This document shows, in pieces, positions 4,623 through 42,287 of a DNA stretch of 64,000 nucleotides; position 1 is the first letter of the stretch; every line of letters starts with the position of its first letter. The notes below the pieces were generated by a model. It was not told the DNA's origin, ran no database searches, and saw only the letters and a list, made by a program, of their open reading frames with translations. Origin of the DNA: Elusimicrobia bacterium UBA4817 (GTDB taxonomy: Bacteria > Elusimicrobiota > UBA8919); NCBI GenBank assembly GCA_002402375.1, contig DHFT01000039.1, positions 12,809 to 76,808 on the forward strand, read 5' to 3'. A program made the translations under genes and the position numbers.

Positions 4623-4664
4623 AAATTACTTGGTGTCTGTTAAAATTATTAAAGATTAGAGAAG

Positions 4665-5039
4665 TTAATGTTGACTATTCACTTCAAAAATATTACCCAT
4701 CTTAAACATTGGCATAAACATAGATATAATTGTTACAAAGAATGTCAATCCTATTATGATAAATAGCGAAACCAATAATAATTTTGTGATTCTGATGTTT
4801 TTCCCTATAACTATATAAATATAAATTGCACTTATTGGCAATAAAATTACAAGCCACATTTTAGATAAAAAAAATATGCTTTTGGTGATTTGCGATAAAT
4901 CAACTCCTAAACTATCAAATATTTCTCTAAACGAAGGAACGACACCAATTAAAATATAAGAACAAACTATTATTGCCGCGAGTAAACCCAATTTAAGGTC
5001 AGTCAATTTAGAAATATTATTTTTAACAAATTTTATCAT
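4665..5039 (-). CDS. small integral membrane protein (3 predicted TM helices), hypothetical
   Basis: 124 aa ORF made of hydrophobic segments; no recognisable family. Confidence 0.4.
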   Translation of the reverse strand: MIKFVKNNISKLTDLKLGLLAAIIVCSYILIGVVPSFREIFDSLGVDLSQITKSIFFLSKMWLVILLPISAIYIYIVIGKNIRITKLLLVSLFIIIGLTFFVTIISMFMPMFKMGNIFEVNSQH

Positions 5040-5078: not shown

Positions 5079-5120
5079 AATGACGCATACCCGTGAATAC
5101 CATTGAGATTTTATGTTCGG
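5079..5120. repeat. imperfect direct-repeat copy of the purH 3' end (partner at 6351..6391)
   Basis: About 41 bp, 4 mismatches: 'atgacgcatacccgtgaataccattgagattttatgttcgg' versus 'atggcgcatgcctgtgaataccattgagattttatgctcg'. The 6351..6391 copy encodes the purH C-terminus (…MVFTGMRHLRH*). Confidence 0.8.
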
Positions 5121-5148: not shown

Positions 5149-6279
5149 TTATCCGATAATATCAAAATAATTATCCTTAGTTATAACGGTAAATTTAGAA
5201 TTTTTATATGTTTCAACAAAATCTTTCGGCGGTTTTACGCCTTTTGCTTTCCATTTGCATTCAAAACCCCAAAGACATCCAGCCCTTTCTTCAACAAAAT
5301 CAACCTCTTTCTGGTCGTAAGTCCTCCAGAAATATTTATTGCAATGAATATTTTTATAATTTAATTTTTTAATTCTTTCCGAAATACAATAATTCTCCCA
5401 TAATTTTCCTATGTCATCCCGCATAGTAATACTATTATAATTTGAAATAATAGCGTTGCGAACACCGTTGTCCCAAAAATAATATCGCGGTGTTTTTGTA
5501 TATTCCTTCCTTAAATTCCTGCTGAAACCGTATAATGAAAATAACACATAAGATTTTTCAAGTAATTCAAGATACCTCATCACCGTTTTTTTATTTGCAT
5601 TTAAGTTATTAGCGAGTTCAGAATATGAAATATCGTTACCGATTTGGAATGCTATAAGTCGTAATAAATTAAAAATGAATAAAGAGTTTTTGAGATTGTC
5701 CAATTGCAAAATATCTCTCAATAAATAACCGTCTCTTATTGATTCAAGCAGTTCTTTCTTTTCTTTTAAGGATTTTGCCGTCAATACCTGCGGATACATT
5801 CCATATATCAATCTGTCCTCTAAATTTTCCTTGTTTTTCAGAAAATCCTGATAATTGTTTAATTCTAATTGTGATATGGGATAAAAATAATAGAACTTAC
5901 TTCTCTCCACCAGAGGTTCTCCTATTTTGTTTTTTAAGTCAAATGAGGAAGAACCGGAAACAAAAACTGAAATTCCCGGGATATTGTCAACAATAAGTTT
6001 TAGATTGAGTCCGATGTTGGGTATTTTCTGGGCTTCGTCTATAAAAAGATATTTATAACCGGCTGTAAACTTTTCAAGAATGCTTAACATCTGACTTGAT
6101 AATATTTCTAACACATCTAAATTTTCACCATTTACCATTAGAACAGGTTTGTTTTTTAATTTCTCTTTCACCGAATTCATTAGCACGGTCTTACCGGTTC
6201 TTCTGGCACCGAAGAGTCCGATGACTTTGCCTGCCTTTAGAGACGATAGTATCTGATTTTCAATAAATCTGGGTATCAT
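5149..6279 (-). CDS. AAA+ ATPase with DUF4143-type C-terminal domain (COG1373-like)
   Basis: 376 aa; Walker A 'GARRTGKT'; N-terminal AAA domain followed by the extension typical of DUF4143 ATPases. Confidence 0.7.
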   Translation of the reverse strand: MIPRFIENQILSSLKAGKVIGLFGARRTGKTVLMNSVKEKLKNKPVLMVNGENLDVLEILSSQMLSILEKFTAGYKYLFIDEAQKIPNIGLNLKLIVDNIPGISVFVSGSSSFDLKNKIGEPLVERSKFYYFYPISQLELNNYQDFLKNKENLEDRLIYGMYPQVLTAKSLKEKKELLESIRDGYLLRDILQLDNLKNSLFIFNLLRLIAFQIGNDISYSELANNLNANKKTVMRYLELLEKSYVLFSLYGFSRNLRKEYTKTPRYYFWDNGVRNAIISNYNSITMRDDIGKLWENYCISERIKKLNYKNIHCNKYFWRTYDQKEVDFVEERAGCLWGFECKWKAKGVKPPKDFVETYKNSKFTVITKDNYFDIIG

Positions 6280-6339: not shown

Positions 6340-7851
6340 TTAATGACGGAGATGGCGCATGCCTGTGAATACCATTGAGATTTTATGCTCGTTGCAGACG
6401 GTTATTGATTCGTTATCTTTTACCGAGCCGCCGGGCTGAATAATTGCTTTTACGCCGATTTTTGCTGCTTCGTTGACGACATCTTTGAACGGGAAAAATG
6501 CGTCGGAGGATAAAACAAGCGGTAGACGGTAGACGGTAGACGGTAGACGGATTAAGTTCATTTTCATTTTTGCGATTTTTAGTGAGTCAATCCTTGACAT
6601 TTGGCCGCCGCCGATTCCTACCGTTCGGGTGCCTCTGGCAAGGACGATTGCATTTGATTTTACATATTTTGCGACGGTAAAAGCAAATTTTAACGATTCC
6701 AATTCTTCTTTTGCCGGTTTTGTCTTTGTAACAATTTTTAACTTGTCAAAAATTTTGCTGTCCTTTTCCTGAACAAGAAAGCCGTCGGAAATACTGCGGA
6801 ACTCAAGCGATTGAGCAAGTGAGCGATTAAGCGAGTGAGTTAAAACTCTTAAATTTTGTTTTTGCGAAAATATTTTCAGCGCATCTTTTGAATAATTCGG
6901 CGCAATAACACACTCGGTAAAAATTTTTATTACGTCTCTTGCGGTTCTGCCATCCACGATTTTATTAAACGCTACAATTCCGCCGAATGCCGAAACGGGG
7001 TCGCAGGCAAGAGCATTTTTGTAAGCATCAAAAATAGTTTTAGCGGTTGCAACTCCACAAGGATTATTATGCTTTACAATCACACAAGCAGGTTTTTCAA
7101 ATTCGCAAACCAGATTAAAAGCAGAATCCATATCAAGATAATTGTTATAAGAAAGTTCTTTCCCTTGCAGTTGTTTTACACTTCCGACTTCCGACTTCCC
7201 ACTTCCGATATGGTAAACTGCCGCTTTCTGATGAGGATTTTCACCGTACCGCAAGTCGGAAAATTTTTTAAGTCCAACTGTTATTTTTTCTGGAAACTGC
7301 TCGTCGGTAAAATAATTTGAAATAATAGAATCATAATAAGCGGTATGGCTGAATGCCTTTGCCGCAAGTTTTTTTCTGAATGAAAAATCTATCTTTGAAC
7401 TTTTAATATTATCTATGATGTTAGAATAATCTTTCGTGTCGCAGACCGCCAGAACATTCTCAAAATTTTTTGCGGCCGCGCGGAGCATCGCCACTCCGCC
7501 GATATCTATATTTTCAACTGAAGGTTTTTCTTCAAACGGATAAAGATTTATAACGACGATATCAATCGCGTTAATTTTGTGTTTTTTCAACTCGTCAATA
7601 TGTTGTTTTGTCTTTTTTGCCAGTATTCCCGCGTGGATTTTCGGATGCAGTGTCTTTACCCGCCCGTCAAGGATTTCCGGAAAGCCAGTAATTTTTTCAA
7701 CCGAAACGACGGAAATTCCCACTTTTTTAAGAAACGTTACTGTCCCGCCGGTTGATATAATTTTGACATCCAATTTTTTAAGTTCTTTTGCAAATTCAAC
7801 AATTCCGGTTTTGTCCGATACGCTGATTAATGCTGTTTTAATAGTTTTCAT
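6340..7851 (-). CDS. purH: bifunctional AICAR formyltransferase / IMP cyclohydrolase
   Basis: 503 aa; MGS-like N-terminal domain (KTALISVSDKTG…GGT) and C-terminus 'SDAFFPF…IIQPGGS…MVFTGMRHLRH' matching PurH. Confidence 0.95.
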   Translation of the reverse strand: MKTIKTALISVSDKTGIVEFAKELKKLDVKIISTGGTVTFLKKVGISVVSVEKITGFPEILDGRVKTLHPKIHAGILAKKTKQHIDELKKHKINAIDIVVINLYPFEEKPSVENIDIGGVAMLRAAAKNFENVLAVCDTKDYSNIIDNIKSSKIDFSFRKKLAAKAFSHTAYYDSIISNYFTDEQFPEKITVGLKKFSDLRYGENPHQKAAVYHIGSGKSEVGSVKQLQGKELSYNNYLDMDSAFNLVCEFEKPACVIVKHNNPCGVATAKTIFDAYKNALACDPVSAFGGIVAFNKIVDGRTARDVIKIFTECVIAPNYSKDALKIFSQKQNLRVLTHSLNRSLAQSLEFRSISDGFLVQEKDSKIFDKLKIVTKTKPAKEELESLKFAFTVAKYVKSNAIVLARGTRTVGIGGGQMSRIDSLKIAKMKMNLIRLPSTVYRLPLVLSSDAFFPFKDVVNEAAKIGVKAIIQPGGSVKDNESITVCNEHKISMVFTGMRHLRH

Positions 7852-10149: not shown

Positions 10150-12632
<2,483 letters not shown>

Positions 12633-16545: not shown

Positions 16546-17608
16546 TTAAATATCCCTCAAACAAAAAATCTTCTTCTATTTTTTCTACAGATATATTTTT
16601 AACGTCCGCGGCATTTTTTACGTATTCCGTACTGTTAATAATTTTAGGACAGATAAAAAACATAATTTTATCAACTAATTTTTCTTTAAGAAATGATTTG
16701 GCAACCGTTTCTCCGCCTTCAACAATCAGCGACGAAATACTCATTTTGCCGAGTTTAACCAGCAATTTTTTAATATCCAGAAAATTGTTTTTTAATGGGA
16801 GTTCAATTATCCCTATACCCATTTTTTTAAGTTTTTCTTTTTTAACTCTGTTTGAATTTATTGATGTTGCAATTATCGTTTTTGACTTACCGTTTAGTAC
16901 ATTTGTACTAAATGGAATTTTTAATCCGGTATCAAGAATTACTCTGACAGGATTTTTTCCTTTTCCGTGTGATGTCAGTTTCGGGTTGTCTTTTAATACA
17001 GTATTTATTCCAACCAGTATAGCATCGGTTCGGCTTCGTAATTGATGAACGGTTTCTCTGGATTTTTCAGAACTGAGCCATTTTGAATCTCCGCTCTCCG
17101 TTTTTGTTTTACCGTCTAAAGAGTATGCCATTTTAAGAATTACAAAGGGCGTTTTTGTTTTGATGTATTTTATGTATGTCTCGTTTAATTTTTTTGCTTC
17201 TTTTTCCATCACACTCACTTTACACTTTACACCTTTCACTTTCAACTGTCTTATCCCTTTCCCGCCAACCGCCGGGTTCGGGTCTTTTGTTGCGATAACA
17301 ACTTTTTTTATGCCGCTATTTATTATCTGCGGTACACAAGGCGGAGTTTTTTTATTGTAATGACAGCATGGCTCCAAGTTAACATACATCGTCGCATCTT
17401 TCGGGTTTTTACATTTTTTTAATGCCTCAACTTCCGCATGTGGCCCGCCAAAATATTTATGATAACCTGTTGAAAGAATTTTTCCGTTTTTTACGATTAC
17501 ACAACCGACCATAGGATTCGGACTGACTTTACCTTGTCCTTTTTTAGCAAGTTTTATTACCAATTGCATAAATTTTCTGTCTTCGTCTGTGTAATCTGTT
17601 TTTTTCAT
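16538..17608 (-). CDS. ribD: bifunctional diaminohydroxyphosphoribosylaminopyrimidine deaminase / 5-amino-6-(5-phosphoribosylamino)uracil reductase
   Basis: 356 aa; CMP/dCMP-type deaminase 'HAEVEAL…PCCHY…PPC' N-terminus and RibD reductase C-terminal domain. Confidence 0.9.
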   Translation of the reverse strand: MKKTDYTDEDRKFMQLVIKLAKKGQGKVSPNPMVGCVIVKNGKILSTGYHKYFGGPHAEVEALKKCKNPKDATMYVNLEPCCHYNKKTPPCVPQIINSGIKKVVIATKDPNPAVGGKGIRQLKVKGVKCKVSVMEKEAKKLNETYIKYIKTKTPFVILKMAYSLDGKTKTESGDSKWLSSEKSRETVHQLRSRTDAILVGINTVLKDNPKLTSHGKGKNPVRVILDTGLKIPFSTNVLNGKSKTIIATSINSNRVKKEKLKKMGIGIIELPLKNNFLDIKKLLVKLGKMSISSLIVEGGETVAKSFLKEKLVDKIMFFICPKIINSTEYVKNAADVKNISVEKIEEDFLFEGYLNV

Positions 17609-17632
17609 CTGTGTAATTTGTGTTCTATAAAT

Positions 17633-17668
17633 AAAAAATCCCCAATTTGTCTTCGGGGTTTATTGGGC
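17633..17668 (-). terminator. intrinsic terminator (FMN riboswitch expression platform)
   Basis: Minus-strand 'CCCAATAAACCCCGAAGACAAATTGGGGATTTTTTATTT': G/C stem followed by a U-tract, immediately 3' of the FMN aptamer. Confidence 0.65.
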
Positions 17669-17701
17669 GAATAAATTCACCTTTACAAAAAACATATTAT
17701 A

Positions 17702-17843
17702 CTCTTCTATCATCCGGACTTTACCGTCGGTATCTGAATTTCACAGATTCGGTCCCGAACATTTTTAATAAAAAATGTGAGAGATTAGCGGACTTTTACC
17801 GCCGGTCGGGAATTCCTGTTTAGGTCACCCCACCCCGAAGAGT
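17702..17843 (-). promoter_or_regulatory. FMN riboswitch (RFN element) leading the rib operon
   Basis: The minus strand reads 'CTCTTCGGGGTGGGGTGACCTAAACAGGAATTCCCGACCGGCGGTAAAAGTCCGC…GGGACCGAATCTGTGAAATTCAGATACCGACGGTAAAGTCCGGATGATAGAAGAG', matching the RFN consensus blocks GGGG(C/T)GGGTGAAATTCCC, GACCGGCGGTA.AAGTCCGC and CCGACGGTAAAGTCCGGATG. Confidence 0.85.
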
Positions 17844-32625: not shown

Positions 32626-34296
32626 TTACTTTCTTAAAAATTTTCTGTCAAGTTCGTCTTTTGTGATTTTGATGACCGTTGGTCTTCCGTGAGGGCAGGT
32701 ATACGGATTTTCACATTCAAACAATTCTTCCAAAAGTTTTATTGATTCCGCATCCGTTAGTTTATCGCCTGATTTTATGGCGGTTTTGCAGGCGGTTTTT
32801 ATTATATCGTCAAGCAGTGTTGCGGACGACTCGCTTATTTCACCGACTTTTTTCTTTCTTATTATTTCGTTGATTATATTAACCGCGGAGATGTCGCCGA
32901 GGACAGCCGGTACGGACTTTAATGCGAAAGAGTTCTTACCGAATTCCTCCAGTTCAAAACCGATTTGCGTCAAATACTCTTTTAATCCGAAAAGTATATT
33001 AAATTCCTTCGGAGAGAGTTCAATGTTAACAGGCAGCAAAAGATTTTGAATTTCCTGTTTTCGGGCATTGACATTTTTTCTGAATTTCTCGTAAAGAATT
33101 TTTTCCTGCGCGGCGTGCTGGTCAACAATAAAAAGATTTTCGTTCTCCTGTGCCAGTATGTACAATTCAAAAATTCTTCCGATGTGCCGCAATGCCGGTT
33201 TTTTTTCTGTAAATTGTGATTGTATTTCTTTTGTGATATATTCAGTCGGTTGCGTTGAAATGCGTTCATCGGATTTTTGATATGCCGTATAGGAAATTTC
33301 AGGTATCGTTTCTTTTGTAACAATGTGATTCCGTATCGTCTGGTAAATCACCGAATAAATTGCTCCCTCGTCATTAAATTTAATTTCCCTTTTTGTCGGA
33401 TGGACGTTCACATCAATTATATCCGGTTTGATTTCAAACGCTAAAAAAACCGCAGGATTTTCATTGCCATTCAAAAACTCGCGATAACCGTTTTTAACGG
33501 CACTTAAAATCATTCTGGAGTTTATAGGTCTTTTATTAACCGATATAAAAATTCTGTTTCTGCTCAAAAATTTTAATTCGGGTTTGCTTATAAAACCGTA
33601 AATTGAAATTTTTTCGTGTTGCAGGTGTAGTTCAACAAGTTCATTAAGAAATTCATTCCCGAAAATCTGCGCTATGCGAATTTTTAAGTTGGTTGCCTGC
33701 GAATAAGAAAAAAGTTCTTTACCGTCGGATGTTAAAGAAAATGCGACATTAAAATTAACTACAGCATAATCCGTTAAAATAGAAATTATTTTGTTTTTTT
33801 CAGTGTTGTCCGATTTAAGAAATTTCAGCCGAGCGGGAATATTCCGGAAAAGATTTTTTACCTCAACAGTTGTGCCGTCGGGACAACCCTTGTCCTGCAA
33901 ATTTAATAGTTTGCCGTCCTCAATTTCCAATGAAAAGCCTGTTTTTGTATTCGGTGGCTTTGTGGTGATTAACATTTGCGAAACGGATGCTATTGAAGGC
34001 AATGCTTCACCTCTGAAACCCAGAGTATGGATTTTGCTCAAATCCGTTATGTCGGAAATTTTGCTTGTTGAGTGCCTTTCAATAGACAACACTGCATCTT
34101 CTTTTGACATTCCGCATCCGTCATCTGAAACGGCTATGAGTTCTCTGCCGCTGTTCTTTATTTTAACCGTTATATTTTTTGCGCCGGCATCCAGAGAGTT
34201 CTCAACAAGTTCTTTTATGACGGACGCGGGTCTTTCAATTACTTCGCCCGCCGCAATTTTGTTTATCAAATCTAACGAGAGAACTTTTATTTTCAT
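32626..34296 (-). CDS. mutL: DNA mismatch repair protein MutL
   Basis: 556 aa; GHKL ATPase motifs 'ELVENSLDAGA', 'DDGCGM', 'LGFRGEAL'; C-terminal dimerisation domain. Confidence 0.9.
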   Translation of the reverse strand: MKIKVLSLDLINKIAAGEVIERPASVIKELVENSLDAGAKNITVKIKNSGRELIAVSDDGCGMSKEDAVLSIERHSTSKISDITDLSKIHTLGFRGEALPSIASVSQMLITTKPPNTKTGFSLEIEDGKLLNLQDKGCPDGTTVEVKNLFRNIPARLKFLKSDNTEKNKIISILTDYAVVNFNVAFSLTSDGKELFSYSQATNLKIRIAQIFGNEFLNELVELHLQHEKISIYGFISKPELKFLSRNRIFISVNKRPINSRMILSAVKNGYREFLNGNENPAVFLAFEIKPDIIDVNVHPTKREIKFNDEGAIYSVIYQTIRNHIVTKETIPEISYTAYQKSDERISTQPTEYITKEIQSQFTEKKPALRHIGRIFELYILAQENENLFIVDQHAAQEKILYEKFRKNVNARKQEIQNLLLPVNIELSPKEFNILFGLKEYLTQIGFELEEFGKNSFALKSVPAVLGDISAVNIINEIIRKKKVGEISESSATLLDDIIKTACKTAIKSGDKLTDAESIKLLEELFECENPYTCPHGRPTVIKITKDELDRKFLRK

Positions 34297-34736
34297 GAGT
34301 AATGTCCTTTTGCAATTCTCTGGCAGTGCTCAAAATAACTGCATCCTTTTTTGCAAACAGGTTTTTCGCCGAGAAGAATTCTTGTTTCGCAGGAGTCAAA
34401 ATCATCAGCCATCCTGTTAATTTTTTTCACAATATCGTCAGGCATGTTTATAAATTGAATTCCTATTACATATGAACCCTCTTTGTTTTCGCATCTTACG
34501 ACCCTGCTCTTAACATTGTCAATTTTTAGGTCTTTTAAGTCAAAAGAAATTAAAACATTTGAACCTTCGGCAAGTGCTGAAAAAGTCAGCAATGCCATTC
34601 CGCCCGCCGAAAGATTTGCCATAATCGCGGGACTTGCTCTTCCGGCTTTTGAACCCCTCGTGCGGATTAAAACCGGTTTTATCAGATGATACAGAACCGG
34701 AAATCTTTTGGATTTTCTTTTTTCAATGTTGTTCAC
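34293..34736 (-). CDS. PilZ-domain protein with a C-terminal Cys cluster
   Basis: 147 aa; 'RKSKRFPV' RxxxR-type c-di-GMP switch, 'DLSAGGMAL' (D/N)xSxxG motif; C-terminal CxxxC…C…C. Confidence 0.6.
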   Translation of the reverse strand: MNNIEKRKSKRFPVLYHLIKPVLIRTRGSKAGRASPAIMANLSAGGMALLTFSALAEGSNVLISFDLKDLKIDNVKSRVVRCENKEGSYVIGIQFINMPDDIVKKINRMADDFDSCETRILLGEKPVCKKGCSYFEHCQRIAKGHYS

Positions 34737-37323
34737 TTATTCTCCTTTTCCATTCGTAAATTTTTTGCAGTGCATCTAACGGTTTCATTTCGTCGGGTTC
34801 AGTTTTTTCAATTTCATCAAGTACAGGTGATTTTGTAAGAATTTTTTCATCCGGCGGAATAAAAAGTTCCGGCTGTCGGGGATTTTTTTTGTTGTAATTT
34901 TTTTCAAAAAAGGCAAGAAGTTCTTCCGACCTGTCAATCACTTTTTTCGGAAGTCCGGCGATTTTTGCAACATGTATTCCGTAGGACTTATCTGCGCAGC
35001 CCTCAACAATTTTGTGAAGAAAAAGAACATCATTTTTCCATTCTTTAACTGCCACGCTTAAATTAATTATTTCACCGTCGTAAATATCGGCAAGTTCCGT
35101 CAGTTCAAAATAATGCGTCGCAAAAAGTACTTTGGCGCCGAGAGGTCTTAAATATTCAATCGTCGCCCATGCGATGGAAAGTCCGTCAAAAGTAGAAGTT
35201 CCCCTACCGACCTCGTCAAGCAGAATAAAACTTTTTTTTGTCGCATTGCCTAAAATGTTTGAGACCTCTTTCATCTCAACCATAAATGTTGATTCGCCGG
35301 CCGTTAAACGGTCGGAAGCCCCTATTCTGGTAAATATGGAATCAACAATTCCTATTTCCGCTTCTTTTGCCGGGACAAAACTTCCCATTTGCGACATAAT
35401 AATAATAAGTGCCGCCTGTCTTAAATAAGTTGATTTGCCGGACATATTCGGACCCGTTATTATGGCTATTCTTTTTTCGTTATCAAGTAAAATATCATTA
35501 GGTACGAATTGTTCGCCTAAAATTTTTTCTATAACAGGATGCCGCCCGTCAGTAATTTTTATAGTTGATGTGGAATTTACGCTCGGTCTTATGTATCTGT
35601 TTTCGGATGCAAGTTCCGCCAATGACGAAAACATATCTATTCCTGCGATTGCTTTTGCATTGGTCTGTATTACCTCAATATCCTGCATAATTTCCTGACG
35701 GATTTTCAGGAATATCTCATATTCAAGTGCGGCTCTTTTTTCCTCCGCCCCGAAAATCATTGCCTCTTTTTGTTTAAGGGCTTCAGTAATAAATCTTTCC
35801 CCGTTTGCGATAGTTTGTTTTCTGATATAGTCCGGCGGCACCTTGTCAAGGTTGGCTTTCGTAATTTCAATAAAATATCCGAAGACAGAATTGTATCGTA
35901 CCTTCAAGGATTGTATCTGCGTTCTTTGTTTTTCGTCCGTCTCAAATTTAGCAATCCAGTCCTTCGCATTTTTAGAGATAAATTTTAACTCATCAAGGTC
36001 GCTGTTGTATCCGGTTTTTATAAGTCCGCCTTCTTTAATGGTTGCCGGCGGCTCATTCACTATTGATTTTTCAATAAGATTTACAACTTCATCAACTGTT
36101 TTTAAGTCGGAAAAATAATTTTTTATAATTTCCGAACTGCCTAAAAAATCGGAGGATTTAATCGTTTCCGAGATTTTGCTTTTTATTTGAGGTATCACCA
36201 TCAGACTTTTTTTAAGAGCAACCAAATCCCTGCCGTTTGCCGTCTGTGCGGAAATTCTTGAAAGCAACCTTTCTATATCCTGGCAGTTTTGTAATATCTC
36301 CCGAATTTCCATCCGCAAAAGCCCGTTTATGATAAAAAACTCAATCGCATCCTGTCTTTCGGAAATATTTTTTATATCCAAAAGCGGCTCCAAAATTGAT
36401 TTTCTTAAAAGCCGTGCACCCATTGATGTAACCGTTTTATCCATTATTTCAAAAAGCGAACCGGTTCTGCTGCCGGATGAAATACCCTCTACAAGTTCAA
36501 GATTTTTTATTGCCAATTCATCCAGAGTCATAAAATCATTGCCGGTAATTTTCCTGATTTTTTGCACATTAGCCAACACATCCTGCTGCGTTTTTTTCAG
36601 ATAAGAAATAATCGCAGAACATACAATTCTGGTATTTTCATCCAACAGGGATTCCCTTCGGTCATTTTCCATATCTGAGAATTGAAATTTCAACGAAGTA
36701 TCTTCGGCGATTTCCGGCGAAAAGTTTATATTGTCTATGAAAGTTAGCGTTGTTTTTTCTTTTTTTATTGTTTTTATAAGATTTGTATTTTCCTGCTCGG
36801 ATTTAGGAAGAATTATTTCCGATGGAGTGTATTTTGATAGTTGCATATTTAATTTTCTTAAGTTGCGGTCGTCGGAAATTGACAGGTTGTAAAAATCTCC
36901 GGTTGAAACATCAATAAAAGCAACTGCAAAACCTGAATTGTAAGGATAGATTGCGCATAGAAAATTATTTATTTTCGCTTCAAGCAGATTTTCTTCCAAA
37001 ACGGTGCCGGATGTGATAACCCTGACGACCTCTCTTTTTACAAGCCCTTTTGACTTTGACGGGTCTTCCATCTGTTCGCAGATTGCGACGCTAAAACCTT
37101 CCCTTATAAGGCGGGCAACGTAGTATTTATAAGAGTGATAGGGAATTCCGCACATCGGCACATTCTGACGGGATGTAAGCGTTAGCCGTAAAACTTTTGA
37201 TGCTGTTTTTGCATCGTCGTCAAACATTTCATAAAAATCGCCGAGCCGGAAAAATAAAATTGAGTTTTTATGTTTGTCTTTTATCAGATGGTACTGGTTC
37301 ATTAAAGGTGTGAGTTTTGACAT
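34723..37323 (-). CDS. mutS: DNA mismatch repair protein MutS
   Basis: Mismatch-binding domain 'GDFYE(M)F', Walker A 'GPNMSGKST', 'DEVGRGTS' motif. Start moved to internal ATG 'MSKLTPLMNQY'. Confidence 0.95.
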   Translation of the reverse strand: MSKLTPLMNQYHLIKDKHKNSILFFRLGDFYEMFDDDAKTASKVLRLTLTSRQNVPMCGIPYHSYKYYVARLIREGFSVAICEQMEDPSKSKGLVKREVVRVITSGTVLEENLLEAKINNFLCAIYPYNSGFAVAFIDVSTGDFYNLSISDDRNLRKLNMQLSKYTPSEIILPKSEQENTNLIKTIKKEKTTLTFIDNINFSPEIAEDTSLKFQFSDMENDRRESLLDENTRIVCSAIISYLKKTQQDVLANVQKIRKITGNDFMTLDELAIKNLELVEGISSGSRTGSLFEIMDKTVTSMGARLLRKSILEPLLDIKNISERQDAIEFFIINGLLRMEIREILQNCQDIERLLSRISAQTANGRDLVALKKSLMVIPQIKSKISETIKSSDFLGSSEIIKNYFSDLKTVDEVVNLIEKSIVNEPPATIKEGGLIKTGYNSDLDELKFISKNAKDWIAKFETDEKQRTQIQSLKVRYNSVFGYFIEITKANLDKVPPDYIRKQTIANGERFITEALKQKEAMIFGAEEKRAALEYEIFLKIRQEIMQDIEVIQTNAKAIAGIDMFSSLAELASENRYIRPSVNSTSTIKITDGRHPVIEKILGEQFVPNDILLDNEKRIAIITGPNMSGKSTYLRQAALIIIMSQMGSFVPAKEAEIGIVDSIFTRIGASDRLTAGESTFMVEMKEVSNILGNATKKSFILLDEVGRGTSTFDGLSIAWATIEYLRPLGAKVLFATHYFELTELADIYDGEIINLSVAVKEWKNDVLFLHKIVEGCADKSYGIHVAKIAGLPKKVIDRSEELLAFFEKNYNKKNPRQPELFIPPDEKILTKSPVLDEIEKTEPDEMKPLDALQKIYEWKRRISEQH

Positions 37324-37358
37324 AAAAAAAGGTTTTTCAAATTTTAACAGGAAATCCA

Positions 37359-38426
37359 CTATATGCTATTATAAAAAATTGCGTTTAATCTTGCAAGCCT
37401 TTCTTTTTTAATTTCTGCCGGGATGTCGTCTTTCATATAAAACGCTTTCGTATTTTCTCTCGGCGAATACTTAAAAGTGAATGCCGACTTGAAGCCGACT
37501 TTTTTTATGATGTCCAGTGTCTGCCGAAAATCTTTTTCTGTTTCAGTCGGAAATCCGACAATTATGTCGGTTGTAATTGCAACACCGGGTATTTTTTTTC
37601 TGAGTTTTTTGATAATTTTTAGGTACTTTCCCCGCGTATATTTTCTATTCATAAGTTTAAGAATTTTATTTGAACCGGACTGCAAAGGTAAATGAATCTG
37701 CCGAGTGACCTTTTTACATGAAGCGATTGCGTTGATGATTTTGTCGGACATATCTTTCGGATGACTGGTCATAAAACCGATTTTTTTTATTTGAGGAATT
37801 TTATTAAGTTCAATCAGTAAATCGGCAAAATCAAATTTTCCAAATTTATAGCTATTTACATTCTGCCCGAGCAGGGTTATTTCGTTCCTACCCCGCGAAA
37901 TAAGTTTTTTTACATCGGCGAGTATATCTTTTTTAGGTCTTGATATTTCGTCGCCTCTTACAAACGGCACTACACAGTAAGAGCAGAAATTGGAGCATCC
38001 TTTCGTTATAGTTACGAATTCCGTTCCTTTATTGTTAGAATTTTTGGTTTTTGGATTTTTCGGTGTTATGTTAACGGTATCCTTTACTATTTCAGAAAAA
38101 TTTTCTATTTCCGTTGCAGGAATGATTTTATCAATATAGGGGAACTTTTTTTTAAGTTTTTCTTTCAAGCGTGAAGCAACGCAACCTGCTACAAAAATTT
38201 TTAATTTTTTATTTTTAATCTTTAATTGCTTCAATTCTCCGATAAAACTGAACGCTCTCTCTTCCGCATGCTGTCTTACCGTGCAGGTATTGGCGATGAT
38301 TATGTTGGCTTTGCGAATGTCGTTACATCTTTCATAACCCGCATCGTGCAGTTTTTCCGACATAAAATCCGAATCCGCCACATTCATCTGACAACCCATT
38401 GTGCGAATAAAGAAGGTTTTAGGCAT
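37359..38426 (-). CDS. MiaB-family radical-SAM methylthiotransferase lacking a TRAM domain
   Basis: 355 aa; MTTase N-domain Cys (C12, C48, C82), radical-SAM 'CSNFCSYC'; the protein ends right after 'RLARLNAIF', where the TRAM domain of MiaB/RimO/MtaB would follow. Confidence 0.7.
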   Translation of the reverse strand: MPKTFFIRTMGCQMNVADSDFMSEKLHDAGYERCNDIRKANIIIANTCTVRQHAEERAFSFIGELKQLKIKNKKLKIFVAGCVASRLKEKLKKKFPYIDKIIPATEIENFSEIVKDTVNITPKNPKTKNSNNKGTEFVTITKGCSNFCSYCVVPFVRGDEISRPKKDILADVKKLISRGRNEITLLGQNVNSYKFGKFDFADLLIELNKIPQIKKIGFMTSHPKDMSDKIINAIASCKKVTRQIHLPLQSGSNKILKLMNRKYTRGKYLKIIKKLRKKIPGVAITTDIIVGFPTETEKDFRQTLDIIKKVGFKSAFTFKYSPRENTKAFYMKDDIPAEIKKERLARLNAIFYNSI

Positions 38427-38453
38427 ATATTTTTAGAGATATTTCTATTTTGT

Positions 38454-39107
38454 TTAATTATCTTTTCGATATTTTATGTTGCTTAAATTAATGTGATCCC
38501 AATAATCATTTGGAATAGGTTCTCCATTATAATAAAATTGAACCCCATCTATCCATTCACCGGTATAGTTCTTTTGGAGAAAAGTATCTACTAACATTGT
38601 TGTTGTAATACTTCCTCCTGCTGAACCTTGGAAATAATGACTTTTCCAAGTAATACTGGAAGGTACAATCATCTTTGGTTCACTTAGGTTAATTATTGCT
38701 ACATTTTTTCCGTTGATTTGTTCAATTTTTAATATATCTATTGGCAGATAGCTAAATTTTATCGTTGATAACTTTTGAGATAGTATTTTTAACTTTTCTG
38801 TTAAAGGCAATTCATTCGGTAGTTTTATATAAAATAATATTATTTTTTCCATAGTATCACTGTCCCTACTATATACTTCAAAAAAATAATCATTTTTATT
38901 ATAAGGATTCTGTTGTGATAATACATCTGCTTTGGTTTTACCAATTTCTTTTTTATAGTTTTCAACTTCTATTTTTAACTGTTTGATTTTAGATTCTTGC
39001 CATAGAAAAATTATTACTGCTATAAGCAGAATAAGGATTAAGTTAATAATTACGAATTTTATACTTAATTGTGTTTTTATAGACTTCTGGATATTAAGTA
39101 GTTTCAT
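38454..39107 (-). CDS. membrane-anchored hypothetical protein (N-terminal TM, coiled-coil, C-terminal globular domain)
   Basis: 217 aa in the AT-rich islet; no recognisable family. Confidence 0.4.
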   Translation of the reverse strand: MKLLNIQKSIKTQLSIKFVIINLILILLIAVIIFLWQESKIKQLKIEVENYKKEIGKTKADVLSQQNPYNKNDYFFEVYSRDSDTMEKIILFYIKLPNELPLTEKLKILSQKLSTIKFSYLPIDILKIEQINGKNVAIINLSEPKMIVPSSITWKSHYFQGSAGGSITTTMLVDTFLQKNYTGEWIDGVQFYYNGEPIPNDYWDHINLSNIKYRKDN

Positions 39108-39141
39108 GATTTTTCCTTTTATGTTATGATTATCTGTCAGT

Positions 39142-40095
39142 TTACTTTGTTTTAATAGATTTATTTATTTCATTCCATTCAGTAATAATATCTTTACTTT
39201 TTTTCCACCATTCAATAAATGGTGGTTTATTTGAAGTTTTCTTTATTTCGCTGTATTGACCTCTTAATATCGTATCCGTAGAAGGAACATTATAACAGAC
39301 ATTTTTGGAAATAATCCATCTGTCGTGAATAGAGGATATTACTTTTTTATCAGTAAGTACTCTCAATTCACAAGTAATGTTTTTGCTGTTCAGTTCCTTT
39401 TTGAAATTTTTATAAATATTTCTCAAATTTTCACTGATTTTGTCAACCGACATTAAAATGTAAATCTTTTCAACGTTCTTAAAATTCAAAGATTCAGATA
39501 ATAATTCAAACCCTGCTTTAGAAAAGTATTTATCTATCCAATAAATATGTTTACTGCATGATTTTATAATATTCCAAAAAATCTTTCTATTTGTAAATGG
39601 TTTTTCAGGTGAAATCAGTGCTGTTTCAGAAACAAGCATCGGTTTATGAATCACATCAAAAATTGTTTTAATTGTTGCATCATGCAGTTCAACCTTTTTT
39701 TCAAGTTGATTTAATCGGTTTATAATTTCCTTATTTGAAGATGCGATTTTTCTAATATTGACAAAAACTCTCATAATACCTATATTAACTTGAACGGATT
39801 TTTTACTATTGAGTACGCTTGAAAGCATGGCAACACCTTGTTCAGTAAAGGCATATACATTTTTAGAGAATTTTAAGGATATCACAAATTGTGATATCCT
39901 CATTATTTCTTCTCTCGTCAATATGAACATAAAGTCTTTCGGAAATCTATCAATATTCCTCTTTACAGCTTGATTTAATATTCTGGTTTCTACTCCGTAA
40001 AGCTCTGCTAAATCTCTGTCAAGCATAACTTTTTGACCTTTAATTAAGAATATTTTTTTCTCAATTATTTCTTGTGGTATCATTTGTTGTTTCAT
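39142..40095 (-). CDS. ORF6N (KilA-N-like) DNA-binding domain fused to a coiled coil and an unknown C-terminal domain
   Basis: N-terminus 'IKGQKVMLDRDLAELYGVETRILNQAVKRNIDRFPKDFMFILTREE…AFTEQGVAMLSSVLNS' matches ORF6N; about 170-aa C-terminal region unassigned; extended -10 'TGCTATAAT' upstream. Confidence 0.6.
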   Translation of the reverse strand: MKQQMIPQEIIEKKIFLIKGQKVMLDRDLAELYGVETRILNQAVKRNIDRFPKDFMFILTREEIMRISQFVISLKFSKNVYAFTEQGVAMLSSVLNSKKSVQVNIGIMRVFVNIRKIASSNKEIINRLNQLEKKVELHDATIKTIFDVIHKPMLVSETALISPEKPFTNRKIFWNIIKSCSKHIYWIDKYFSKAGFELLSESLNFKNVEKIYILMSVDKISENLRNIYKNFKKELNSKNITCELRVLTDKKVISSIHDRWIISKNVCYNVPSTDTILRGQYSEIKKTSNKPPFIEWWKKSKDIITEWNEINKSIKTK

Positions 40096-40340
40096 AATGC
40101 TCCTTTATCTTGCGATACATTATAGCAAAATTCCATAAATATTACTTTCCATTTTCCAGAGATTGGTACTTTCTTTGCACACTCATTGAAATTATATTCA
40201 AAAACGTTAATAAATTACTGAATTTATCAGTTTTATCATCGGTTAACGGTTTTACAATTCCAGACCATCTGACATCCGAAAGTTTTAATAAAAAATGTTT
40301 TATTCACGATAACAGTATATAAAAAGCAAGCACAAATGAA

Positions 40341-40363
40341 CCCCCGATAGAATCATTCGGGGG
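40341..40363 (-). terminator. probable terminator hairpin downstream of the GT2 gene
   Basis: 'cccccga-tagaatcat-tcggggg', 7-bp G/C stem followed on the minus strand by a U-rich stretch. Confidence 0.4.
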
Positions 40364-40421
40364 CAGGCTCCGATGGACACAGAAACAAAAAAAGTATATC
40401 TTGTTATTTCTTTATAGATTT

Positions 40422-40475
40422 AATCTGTGATGCTTCGCTAAATCTGTGTTCATCTGTGGTTACAAGGTTTTCTTG
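40422..40475. repeat. second copy of the CACAGAT element (see 12542..12632)
   Basis: 'aatctgtgatgcttcgctaaatctgtgttcatctgtggttacaaggttttcttg', immediately 3' of the GT2 stop. Confidence 0.6.
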
Positions 40476-40478
40476 AAA

Positions 40479-41936
40479 TTATTTTTGCCTGAAGGATAGT
40501 AAAATGGACGATACTGAAAAATACATAAAACCGAACTGGAAAAGCAGAATTAATGGTGTAAGAAAGTATAGCCGTGCTCTTATCGTGAGGTAAAGCAAAA
40601 CGGTGAAATAGAGAGCCATAAAAAGTTCCAGATAAAGAACCAGATTTTTTTTGGATTTATATTTTGTAGCATTCAGTTTTGCGGTTTTACCGGTCATACC
40701 GCATTTCGGAGTTCTTACAAATTCGGAGTCGTATCCGTAAATTCCTTCTAACACGCATTTGGAATTATTTATGGCAAGACCAATACCGGCTGACATCAGA
40801 AACGGGATGTATTTTACGGAGTCCCAAAAACCGTATCCGAGTTCTTTCTGTGATGTGTAATAAAAATATGCGATTGAAAAGGTTCCGAGTAAAAATACCG
40901 GAATGTCAATCATATAAAGATTTGTATTACCTGTGTTCAATCGGACAAGAATTGCCGGAAGAAGTACCAGCGAAACGGCCGTAAGAAACAAATAAGAGAA
41001 ATTACTTGACAGATGAAATACCGCTTCAAGTTTAACTTTTAAGGGCGTGTCGCTTTTTAGTATTTTGCCGAGCAGTTTTTTTGCTACCTGTATCGTTCCT
41101 TTCGCCCATCTTCCCTGCTGGGTTTTGAAAGCGTTGACATCAATGGGCAGTTCTGCGGGAGTTACGACATCAGGGACAAAAACAAATTTCCAACCCTTAA
41201 TCTGTGCCCTGTAAGACAAATCCATATCTTCGGTAAGAGTATCTCCCTGCCATCCGCCGGATGCCTCTATAGTTTTTTTTCGCCATATCCCTGCGGTGCC
41301 GTTAAAATTAAAAAATCTCCCCGAGCGGTTTCTTGCGGTGTGTTCAATTAAGAAATGCCCGTCTAAAATTATTGCCTGTATTTTTGTCAGAAGCGAATAT
41401 TTTCTGTTTGAATGTCCCCACCTCGCCTGAACCATTCCTATATTCTCTTCAGTAAAATAAGGCATAAGATTTTTCAAAAAATCCGGTTGCGGAACAAAAT
41501 CAGCGTCAAAGATGGCTATGAATTCTCCGGTTGCTTTTGCCATACCGTTTTGCAGCGCGCCCGCTTTGAAACCGGTTCTATTGTTCCTGTGAATATAAAA
41601 AATGTTGAGGTTTTCTTTTTTGAATTTTTCAACGGTTTCTTTTGCGATTTTTTGCGTTTCGTCGGTGGAATCGTCAAGCACCTGAATTTCCAGTTTGTCT
41701 TTCGGGTAATCTAACCGGACAATATTTTCTATTAAACGCGCGACGACGTTCATCTCATTAAAAACAGGAAGTTGCACGGTAACGACGGGATAGGGGTTGA
41801 CGAGCGGCTTTGTTTCAGGCGTTGCCTTCTTATATTTTTTGTAGAAATATATGAGAAAATATCTGTGGCTTCCGAAAATTATAAGCCCCGATAAAGATAC
41901 AAAATAGATAACAAGAAGAATATTATTCGCCGTCAT
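40479..41936 (-). CDS. processive family-2 glycosyltransferase (cellulose/hyaluronan/chitin-synthase-like, QxxRW motif)
   Basis: 485 aa; N-terminal TM helices, 'DDSTDET', 'DAD', 'QQGRWAKG' and C-terminal TM helices, typical of membrane-embedded processive GT2 synthases. Confidence 0.7.
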   Translation of the reverse strand: MTANNILLVIYFVSLSGLIIFGSHRYFLIYFYKKYKKATPETKPLVNPYPVVTVQLPVFNEMNVVARLIENIVRLDYPKDKLEIQVLDDSTDETQKIAKETVEKFKKENLNIFYIHRNNRTGFKAGALQNGMAKATGEFIAIFDADFVPQPDFLKNLMPYFTEENIGMVQARWGHSNRKYSLLTKIQAIILDGHFLIEHTARNRSGRFFNFNGTAGIWRKKTIEASGGWQGDTLTEDMDLSYRAQIKGWKFVFVPDVVTPAELPIDVNAFKTQQGRWAKGTIQVAKKLLGKILKSDTPLKVKLEAVFHLSSNFSYLFLTAVSLVLLPAILVRLNTGNTNLYMIDIPVFLLGTFSIAYFYYTSQKELGYGFWDSVKYIPFLMSAGIGLAINNSKCVLEGIYGYDSEFVRTPKCGMTGKTAKLNATKYKSKKNLVLYLELFMALYFTVLLYLTIRARLYFLTPLILLFQFGFMYFSVSSILLSFRQK

Positions 41937-41942
41937 TTTTCC

Positions 41943-42287
41943 TTATTTTTGTTTATCAAACTTTGGCTGACAATTCATGCAGTACCGTGCATATGGCATT
42001 GCTTTAAGTCGCTCCGGCGGTATTTTTGCCGAACAATTTTCACAAAGCCCGTATTTGCCTGCTTCAATTTTTTTTAGTGCCGCATCAATTGAATTAAGCA
42101 TTACTTTTTCATTACCGCTTAATCCGAATATAAGTTCCTTTTCCTCGCTGTCACCTGCCGCATCAACTTCGTCGCCGACATTAGGTTCCTGCAAATCCTT
42201 TTGTTGCTTGTCTGCCACTGTTTTTAATAAATCGTTTTTTTTTGCAATGAGATTTTTTTTCAGTTCGTTTAAATCCTTGGCATTCAT
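41943..42287 (-). CDS. DksA/TraR-family C4 zinc-finger protein
   Basis: 114 aa; 'CENCSAKIPPERLKAMPYARYCMNC' C4 finger after a coiled-coil. Confidence 0.75.
   Translation of the reverse strand: MNAKDLNELKKNLIAKKNDLLKTVADKQQKDLQEPNVGDEVDAAGDSEEKELIFGLSGNEKVMLNSIDAALKKIEAGKYGLCENCSAKIPPERLKAMPYARYCMNCQPKFDKQK

Follow-up and report, generated by a model that had tools for sequence, protein, structure and literature searches.

The islet and its insertion at the start of miaB

Between a GT2 glycosyltransferase gene and a MiaB-like gene of Elusimicrobia bacterium UBA4817 lies a short AT-rich islet of two genes, whose origin and likely function we analyze here. The window is the whole stretch of DNA studied, 64,000 nucleotides (nt) of contig DHFT01000039.1 (positions 12,809 to 76,808). 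An original prediction, made from the sequence alone, took the islet for a phage-defense or abortive-infection cassette. Our results partly support that interpretation: gene 1 is a new member of PDC-S05, a known candidate anti-phage family, and carries a C-terminal domain that we assign, by predicted fold and motif conservation, to the MIT_C-type class of the PLD superfamily, but gene 2 is not its conserved partner. The genes stand in the order GT2, gene 1, gene 2, miaB, all four on the minus strand, with gene 2 starting 34 nt past gene 1. The locus comprises the following features:

40479..41936, minus strand: GT2 glycosyltransferase gene
40423..40475, no strand: three ATCTGTG (CACAGAT) heptamers and a 24-nt dispersed element, native, outside the insert
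40340..40364, minus strand: GC-rich hairpin followed by a T-rich run, read from the sequence as the GT2 terminator, native, outside the insert
40266..40307, minus strand: left insert boundary, relic of a methylthiotransferase 5' end, GTG-NKTFFIKTFGCQM (direct repeat D1 and translation)
40116..40156, minus strand: conserved 5' element of the ORF6N cassette with an extended -10 box, TGCTATAAT (40119-40127); ribosome binding site AAAGGAG at 40100-40106
39142..40095, minus strand: gene 1, open reading frame (ORF) of 317 amino acids (aa), ORF6N, helical linker and MIT_C-type PLD-like protein of the PADLOC PDC-S05 family
38454..39107, minus strand: gene 2, ORF of 217 aa, single-pass membrane protein with a putatively GerMN-like extracytoplasmic domain, probable cargo and not a conserved partner of gene 1
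38385..38426, minus strand: right insert boundary, 5' end of intact miaB, MPKTFFIRTMGCQM, the right-hand duplicate (direct repeat and translation)
37359..38426, minus strand: MiaB-like gene (miaB), 355 aa

Both islet ORFs exist as predicted, and a GC profile bears out the drop in composition. GC content falls from ∼0.36-0.39 in the flanks to 0.23-0.30 within the islet. The unit 38427-40265 has a GC content of 0.271 compared with 0.377 for the window, and it is the minimum among all 1839-nt segments of the 64 kb (0.08% as low or lower). Genes 1 and 2 have the second and third lowest GC content of the 57 window genes (0.263 and 0.277; z = -2.9 and -2.6, against a mean of 0.373 and standard deviation of 0.038).

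The 1.84-kb segment 38427-40265 was acquired horizontally and inserted at the 5' end of miaB. Two observations mark it as an insertion: it is bracketed by a 42-nt duplication of the start of miaB, and GT2 adjoins miaB in the closest relative that we found. A direct repeat pairs 38385-38421 with 40266-40302, and the two 42-nt copies agree at 30 of 42 positions, whereas the best of 20,000 spacer shuffles reached 27. The right-hand copy opens the intact miaB. Its counterpart at 40266-40307, read on the minus strand, begins with a start codon and continues in frame as the relic GTG-NKTFFIKTFGCQM before running into stop codons. Together, the copies enclose exactly the low-GC unit. In the relative, an Elusimicrobiota metagenome-assembled genome (MAG) contig (L014), GT2 is followed directly by miaB and neither islet gene is present. 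This contig is 91% identical to the window over the decarboxylase, 85% over the DksA-like protein, and 86% over GT2. The relic sits 171 nt past the GT2 stop codon, and miaB of L014 starts ∼200 nt past GT2. The empty site is resolved at the gene level, as the GT2-miaB spacer of L014 is too diverged for alignment. By hand count, both 42-nt copies are equally close to L014 (27 of 42 positions each), and the comparison does not tell which one is ancestral. Across 80 miaB loci retrieved, none has either islet gene. Three further assemblies of the same organism carry the identical gene 1-gene 2 pair.

The CACAGAT repeat and hairpin that had been named as one boundary of the islet are both present, but they are native to the GT2 3' end and not part of the insert, whose left edge is in fact the miaB relic. 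No integrase, transposase, or tRNA gene occurs in or beside the unit, and the only tRNA gene of the window is at 576-649. We rejected an insertion sequence or transposon, for which the longest terminal inverted match is 3-6 nt, the ends share no k-mers, and no transposase domain is encoded. An integrase-mobilized genomic island was likewise rejected: the direct repeat is there, but there is no integrase ORF in or beside the unit and no tRNA gene nearby.

The gap between the gene 2 stop codon and the miaB start codon is 27 nt and contains no terminator; therefore, transcription from the islet now probably reads through into miaB. The element at 40116-40156 is homologous to the region upstream of the closest gene 1 homolog in two other loci (L007 and L008) and is a putative promoter of the islet. 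The locus offers a natural example of a defense-type gene that landed in the start of miaB, a gene of an essential pathway, and left it intact.

The MiaB-like protein is itself short. Its 355 aa include UPF0004 and Radical_SAM domains and no TRAM domain, and its stop codon overlaps the mutS start. It is 69% identical to its L014 counterpart (L014:7001-8083), compared to 85-91% for the three upstream genes, and it is followed by mutS-PilZ-mutL in the window versus miaA-hflX in L014. The lower identity and the different downstream genes place the synteny break at miaB itself.

The two genes of the islet

Gene 1 is divided into three parts, and the codons of its central motif can be read directly:

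39814..40059, minus strand: ORF6N (KilA-N-like) DNA-binding domain, aa 13-94 (Pfam PF10543)
39646..39804, minus strand: helical linker, aa 98-150, putative coiled-coil dimerization region (AlphaFold2 model, heptad periodicity)
39145..39597, minus strand: C-terminal PLD-superfamily (MIT_C-type) domain, aa 167-317, predicted nuclease effector
39319..39327, minus strand: codons CAC GAC AGA for His257-Asp258-Arg259, an HDR variant of the HxK motif

The ORF6N domain was recognized correctly at the outset. PF10543 matches over profile positions 1-86 of 86 (E=1.5e-31; 108.9 bits against a gathering cutoff of 27.8) and is found in all 62 aligned homologs. Anti-repressor families of PHROG match this N-terminal part only (E=5e-29), and matches in phage records are likewise confined to the ORF6N module. 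The coiled coil expected next to it is seen as a helical linker. In the AlphaFold2 (AF2) monomer model, helices span aa 98-120, 122-135, and 140-150, with a low predicted local distance difference test score (pLDDT) at 131-166, and heptad periodicity starts at ∼aa 109; the linker may therefore form a coiled coil.

Four PADLOC profiles of PDC-S05 match gene 1: PDLC04869 (E=3e-58; aa 3-262), PDLC04856 (1e-51), PDLC04849 (2e-34), and PDLC04879 (1e-6). The PDLC04869 alignment ends at aa 262, directly past the HDR motif. The full-length family has at least 8000 members, all significant, with ∼60% identity. The best 120 homologs are 55-71% identical and ∼300 aa long and come from Elusimicrobia, Omnitrophota, Desantisbacteria, Firestonebacteria, Nitrospirota, and others, with several copies in some genomes. 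The GC content of gene 1 homologs is 0.27-0.35 regardless of a host GC content of 0.30-0.48. Environmental genomes have PDC-S05 among their most abundant candidate defense types, and the family has been validated experimentally once: a representative in Escherichia coli B lowered the plating of T7 and T5 ∼1000-fold and that of T4 ∼10-fold (PMC12881386). In the literature that we searched, we found neither a mechanism nor a C-terminal domain assignment for PDC-S05.

The assignment of the gene 1 C-terminal domain is the new element of this analysis, and it provides a testable mechanism. Sequence searches agree with the original prediction that the domain has no obvious family. Pfam, NCBIfam, and PHROGs give no match to the C-terminal 150 aa, and searches of PDB sequences with full-length and C-domain profiles returned only noise (vinculin, A20) and no sequence-level match to MITD1. 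MIT_C (PF16565) matches weakly in 10 of 62 homologs (best E=0.0017) and does not match gene 1 itself at the curated threshold. By structure and motif, however, the domain is of the MIT_C-type PLD class. The AF2 model has a pLDDT of >90 over aa 167-317, and structure comparison identifies a PLD fold whose nearest match, by both root mean square deviation and identity, is MITD1; NucT, Zucchini, PLD4, Tdp1, BfiI, and TrmB-type domains match at lower Z. The family's invariant motif, H257-D-R259-x4-(E/K)264-x6-P271-S272-T-D274, keeps the spacing HxK-x4-D-x6-GSxN but has Arg in place of Lys and Asp in place of Asn, and so departs from the canonical HKD motif. In the model, D188 directly follows strand 182-187 (beta-2), and H257-D258-R259 begins strand 259-263. 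An acidic residue after beta-2 and HDR before beta-5 are the signature of MIT_C-type PLD domains, as found in NsnC of Menshen, many BrxL proteins, and MITD1 (PMC12065111). Gene 1 has both parts of this signature.

This class has recently been implicated as the nuclease in DruE of Druantia, and the same role has been proposed for Menshen NsnC and BrxL. In DruE, two MITD1-like PLD domains are reported to form a pocket with a His-x-Arg motif and a Ser; substitutions in this pocket abolish or reduce defense, and DruE degrades single-stranded DNA (bioRxiv 10.64898/2026.05.13.724313). The gene 1 domain resembles those of MITD1, NsnC, and DruE in its PLD fold and in the placement of D188 and H257-D258-R259, and it resembles DruE further in having an equivalent pocket. 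The surroundings differ. In DruE the PLD domains are in tandem on a helicase and in NsnC the domain is attached to ParB-like modules, whereas gene 1 has a single domain, joined by a linker to ORF6N, with no ATPase or helicase partner; moreover, PF16565 is matched only weakly and by only some members of the family.

A second set of relatives is found among nucleases that have one PLD half-site per chain and a separate DNA-binding domain, the arrangement predicted for gene 1. BfiI, NgoAVII, SauUSI, and Nuc share with gene 1 the identical spacing H-x-(K/R)-x4-(D/E)-x6-(G/P)-S-x-(N/D). Gene 1 differs from them in the Lys-to-Arg and Asn-to-Asp replacements, in having ORF6N instead of a B3-like or DUF3427 domain, and in the lack of a cognate methyltransferase.

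A C-domain profile run against 1.84 billion representative proteins found 580 clusters at E≤1e-3. Among the 150 of these clusters that were listed, the domain is C-terminal in nearly all, in proteins of 145-1197 aa. We scanned 10 fusions of differing length. Four carry GmrSD_N (P0130, P0133, P0150, and P0164), one of them with BpuJI_N as well; P0171 is an HsdR-like helicase (HSDR_N, ResIII, SWI2_SNF2, T1R_D3); P0145 is a reverse transcriptase (RVT_1); and the remaining four lack a confident Pfam domain, with a sub-threshold Big_3_5 match in one. The C-domain matches in the GmrSD_N, BpuJI_N plus GmrSD_N, HsdR-like, and RVT_1 proteins have E values of 1e-33 to 1e-59. We did not find fusions of this domain to GmrSD_N, HsdR-like, or RVT_1 proteins described in the literature searched. 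The C-terminal position in GmrSD is that of the nuclease, an HNH-type DUF1524 domain. Homologs of the gene 1 domain occupy this place, C-terminal to GmrSD_N (DUF262), with E values of 1e-39 to 1e-59. Gene 1 is like GmrSD in standing alone with no methylase and unlike it in having no GmrSD_N or NTPase domain. Across 51 divergent fusion proteins, H257 and R259 are conserved at 100%, D188 and N169 at 98%, and S272, Q280, and D258 at 92%. The domain thus appears to be a reusable module at nuclease or effector positions, found C-terminally in GmrSD-, HsdR-, and reverse transcriptase-type proteins.

Plasmids of cultured bacteria, among them Butyrivibrio proteoclasticus B316 (WP_042258743.1) and Haliovirga abyssi (WP_307905677.1), encode distant full-length relatives that are annotated only as "ORF6N domain-containing protein." They retain D188 and HDR, and their motif, which reads "HDRFMIID...GAS," is nearer to the classical one. 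A scan of IMG/VR viral contigs turned up no relatives of the C-domain.

Gene 2, as had been predicted, encodes a single-pass membrane protein with a globular C-terminal domain. Its one transmembrane (TM) helix (aa 18-36; Kyte-Doolittle 3.26) and a helical stalk anchor a well-modeled alpha/beta domain (aa 72-217) that makes up the C-terminal two thirds of the protein. The best Foldseek match is a Clostridium perfringens lipoprotein, 5j7r, and the domain appears closer to envelope modules of the GerMN or lipoprotein type than to any known defense effector. No Pfam family, Germane included, matches gene 2 at E<0.1, and PADLOC gives no significant match (best E=0.017). A single-sequence search finds 6 relatives and a profile search 92, mostly from Clostridia and annotated as "hypothetical" or "putative lipoprotein." None of the 92 has Pfam coverage of the globular domain, and Germane is absent among those listed; a few of the listed relatives carry other Pfam entries over the helical part. 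Gene 2 is thus similar to GerM and clostridial lipoproteins in being membrane anchored and extracytoplasmic, in its best fold match, and in the source of its relatives. It differs in having one domain rather than a tandem pair, no Germane match, and a TM anchor with a helical stalk in place of a lipobox, and its host is an Elusimicrobia MAG that is presumably non-sporulating.

PHROG gives a weak match of gene 2 to Rz-like spanins (E=5e-4), limited to the TM and helical segment (aa 16-70). We rejected a spanin on account of the globular alpha/beta C-domain and the lack of lysis genes nearby.

Proposed mechanism and alternative explanations

The explanation that we favor, and hold with moderate confidence as a whole, is that the islet was acquired, that gene 1 is a stand-alone PDC-S05 member with a PLD-type effector, and that gene 2 is unrelated envelope cargo. 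The ORF6N domain would bind DNA, and the helical linker may dimerize the protein. Single-HKD PLD nucleases such as Nuc, BfiI, and Zucchini build one active site from two subunits. By analogy, two half-sites of His257-x-Arg259, Ser272, and Asp188 could form one active site in the gene 1 dimer, and this composite site would cut the DNA held by the ORF6N domains. With no methylase or immunity gene present, discrimination of self from non-self would come either from ORF6N recognition, in the manner of type IV restriction, or from an autoinhibition released during infection. The MIT_C-type assignment predicts a dimeric, probably metal-independent nuclease with D188, H257, R259, and S272 as its key residues. 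Since the C-domain is the likely effector, no second gene is needed. Gene 2 would then be an unrelated membrane-anchored envelope protein, carried as cargo or inserted at the same spot. That it came with gene 1 or at the same site is probable because the two genes share a bracket and a base composition. On this explanation, the islet is no new kind of system, and gene 2 adds nothing to the defense reading.

The genomic contexts of homologs give part of the case for defense, as does the PDC-S05 match. We examined ten independent full-length ORF6N-PLD contexts, the window among them. Three are defense islands: L007 (GIY-YIG, HEPN_AbiV, SLFN_AlbA_2, methylase, and ResIII), L174 (HsdR, HEPN_AbiU2, and a PLDc_2 protein), and L179-L184 (PIF1/WYL, HsdM, and a SIR2-DUF87 pair). 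No neighbor is common to the ten, and gene 1 in this respect resembles PDC-S05, a single-gene type that recurs in defense islands with no obligatory conserved neighbor. The gene 1 protein itself may act in defense. CsgG-family lipoprotein genes adjoin the ORF6N-PLD gene in 3 of the 10 contexts (L009:4605-5591, L010:8615-9652, and L187:6363-7301), of which L010 and L187 are from the same sample and so may not be independent.

Several observations weigh against this explanation. The seven other contexts are not defense islands. In these, the window included, the ORF6N-PLD gene stands solo or in tandem amid housekeeping genes: three tandem ORF6N genes between purC and purS (L010), and others inside a secretin/TPR cluster (L012), near dnaB/CsgG (L009), between radical-SAM and GT4 genes (L185), ahead of pyrH-frr (L186), and after spoVG (L187). 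The profiles PDLC04856 and PDLC04849 also cover ORF6N-plus-linker proteins that have no effector domain, and thus the PLD domain does not define PDC-S05. None of the 80 metagenome loci examined (L094-L173) has a PLD-like C-domain; that scan was dominated by the N-terminal EQGVAMLS pattern, and we used it for repeat statistics rather than for PLD contexts. PDC-S05 therefore mixes proteins with and without an effector domain. In addition, the protein tested experimentally is described as carrying a Virulence_RhuM domain (PMC12881386). Our Pfam scan found no such domain in gene 1, and so the validation transfers only loosely. Finally, with the same low GC content, the same bracket, and a distance of 34 nt, a lineage-specific functional link between genes 1 and 2 is conceivable. 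As to the short forms themselves, most ORF6N genes in L094-L173 encode ∼170-190-aa proteins of ORF6N and a helical region, and there are PDC-S05 profiles of 177 and 183 positions.

Could gene 1 instead be a non-catalytic regulator? It would then resemble a transcription factor or antirepressor, with a PLD fold that binds a ligand, phosphate, or lipid, and act by repression or occlusion. The layout is like that of TrmB (DNA-binding domain, coiled coil, and PLD-like sugar-binding domain) or the membrane-binding PLD fold of MITD1; the Lys of HxK is Arg in gene 1, the N terminus matches PHROG anti-repressors, and short family members lack the effector domain. However, the C-domain replaces nuclease modules in GmrSD-, HsdR-, and reverse transcriptase-type proteins, and its H, R, D, and S hardly vary among fusions of very different kinds, as would be expected of an active site more than of a variable ligand pocket. 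The MITD1-like pocket of DruE is needed for defense in a protein with nuclease activity, and the gene 1 family is enriched in defense islands. In view of the fusions at effector positions and of polar residues that hardly vary, we judge a regulator unlikely. The two-gene cassette of the original prediction, with an ORF6N protein that senses or binds DNA and a membrane protein as effector, did not hold up. The genes do lie on the same strand at close spacing with the same low GC content, inside one bracket, both absent from L014 and paired identically in the three other assemblies. The pairing, however, is kept in 0 of 10 ORF6N-PLD contexts and in neither of the two gene 2 homolog contexts examined, where one homolog follows LPG_synthase and GT4 genes and the other lies between arginase fragments and a PucR regulator. 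Family sizes differ ∼100-fold, gene 2 has a GerMN-like or lipoprotein-like periplasmic domain on a single anchor helix rather than a pore-forming or enzymatic effector, it lacks a significant PADLOC match, and gene 1 has an effector-type domain of its own. Such a cassette is therefore very unlikely. A decayed prophage, leaving an antirepressor gene and an Rz-like spanin, might account for both PHROG matches and for the direct repeat around the unit. It is contradicted by the lack of any integrase, holin, endolysin, o-spanin, or other phage gene nearby and of a tRNA target, by the C-domain going unseen in IMG/VR and phage records, by a spanin similarity that stops short of the putatively GerMN-like globular domain, and by homologs that are cellular and often in defense islands. 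We consider a prophage remnant extremely improbable.

A different kind of alternative, a selfish gene, arises from repeats that flank ORF6N genes. Exact direct repeats of ≥20 nt flank 13 of 86 ORF6N genes, versus 6 of 1115 control ORFs of the same loci. Of the 10 full-length ORF6N-PLD contexts, 5 are bracketed by repeats, the window included, and the repeats are unrelated in sequence between loci. Sharp-edged cases, meaning those with unrelated sequence outside the repeat, are as follows:

L012, 5937-5966 / 6931-6960: 30 nt, perfect
L007, 926-956 / 2062-2092: 31 nt, perfect
L120, 3855-3881 / 4563-4589: 27 nt, perfect
L132, 3804-3855 / 4694-4745: ∼52 nt, two mismatches
L185, 4816-4861 / 5966-6011: ∼46 nt, ∼89% identity
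L179, 3433-3561 / 4509-4637: 129 nt, perfect, the same in L180-L182 (four independent assemblies)

That all flanking repeats are target duplications can be rejected in part, as those of L123, L125, and L165 are duplications of tandem paralogs, and that of L007 belongs to the conserved promoter region of the cassette, lying within a segment that is homologous to the upstream region of gene 1 in the window and contains an extended -10 box. Integron attC sites were rejected as well; the flanking repeats fold no better than shuffles (z of -0.76 to +1.38). In L179, the duplicated segment starts from a microhomology of 8 nt, TTGAATAA, common to the ends of the upstream gene and the ORF6N gene. Separately, ORF6N genes form tandem arrays of 2-3 diverged paralogs (L010:6001-8558, L123:1026-2870, L125:399-1568, and L165:4001-5392), which mix full-length PLD-bearing and short forms and have duplicated intergenic regions.

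It is tempting to see in these repeats the mark of a homing-endonuclease-like gene or a self-mobilizing cassette, for which defense would be secondary. A DNA-binding domain joined to a nuclease is the classic homing endonuclease layout, and the excess of repeats with sharp edges, the solo insertions (between purC and purS, in the secretin/TPR cluster, and ahead of pyrH-frr), the tandem arrays and multiple copies per genome, and the ∼60% identity across phyla all point the same way. However, short forms that have no PLD domain are also bracketed (L120 and L132), neither conserved element ends nor terminal inverted repeats occur, and repeat lengths vary widely. The microhomology in L179, the promoter origin of the L007 repeat, and a similar bracket around an unrelated low-GC AAA_14/DUF4143 gene of the window count against it as well, and we regard a selfish mobile gene as quite unlikely. 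A more specific version would make ORF6N-family genes, with or without PLD, a widespread class of self-propagating single-gene cassettes that have their own promoter and enter bacterial chromosomes by a new kind of duplicative insertion, leaving 27-129 nt of the target sharply duplicated. On this view the islet is an old case in which the duplication gave miaB its start back, and the PLD (HxR) domain would help to make or resolve the insertion. By analogy with BfiI, the PLD domain could form a covalent DNA intermediate and transesterify. We give this version little credence. The varied repeats, the bracketed short forms, the microhomology, and the AAA_14 bracket favor a generic insertion signature over a dedicated mechanism. 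On the most economical reading, flanking repeats would be a general signature of recent duplicative illegitimate insertion and not of self-transposition.

Other features of the window

The heptamers next to GT2 belong to a dispersed repeat. CACAGAT/ATCTGTG occurs in 18 copies in the window, compared to 3.2 ± 1.8 expected. Three copies lie at 40423-40458, directly 3' of the GT2 stop codon, and the 24-nt element there, ATCTGTGGTTACAAGGTTTTCTTG (at 40452), recurs at 12608. The clusters are intergenic, with direct and inverted copies (532-561, 12545-12631, 17607-17748, and 40423-40475). In L007:2077-2099, directly after the ORF6N cassette, the heptamer forms a perfect palindrome, ATCTGTGGCA-TTC-TGCCACAGAT. 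The heptamer could be a repetitive extragenic palindromic (REP)-like element or a regulator binding site. An Rfam scan of 37000-42000 gave a single chance-level match (E=0.29).

A second low-GC spot of the window holds the AAA_14 plus DUF4143 ATPase gene (5149-6279, minus strand; GC content, 0.317). A perfect direct repeat of 23 nt, GTGAATACCATTGAGATTTTATG, brackets it at 5093-5115 and 6365-6387, and next to it lies the lowest-GC gene of the window (4665-5039, minus strand; 124 aa; GC content, 0.256), which has no Pfam match. This spot is probably another recent insertion.

Downstream of miaB, the gene for a PilZ-domain protein of 147 aa (34293-34736, minus strand) lies between mutS and mutL, with an overlap at both gene ends; a c-di-GMP-binding module is unusual at this place.

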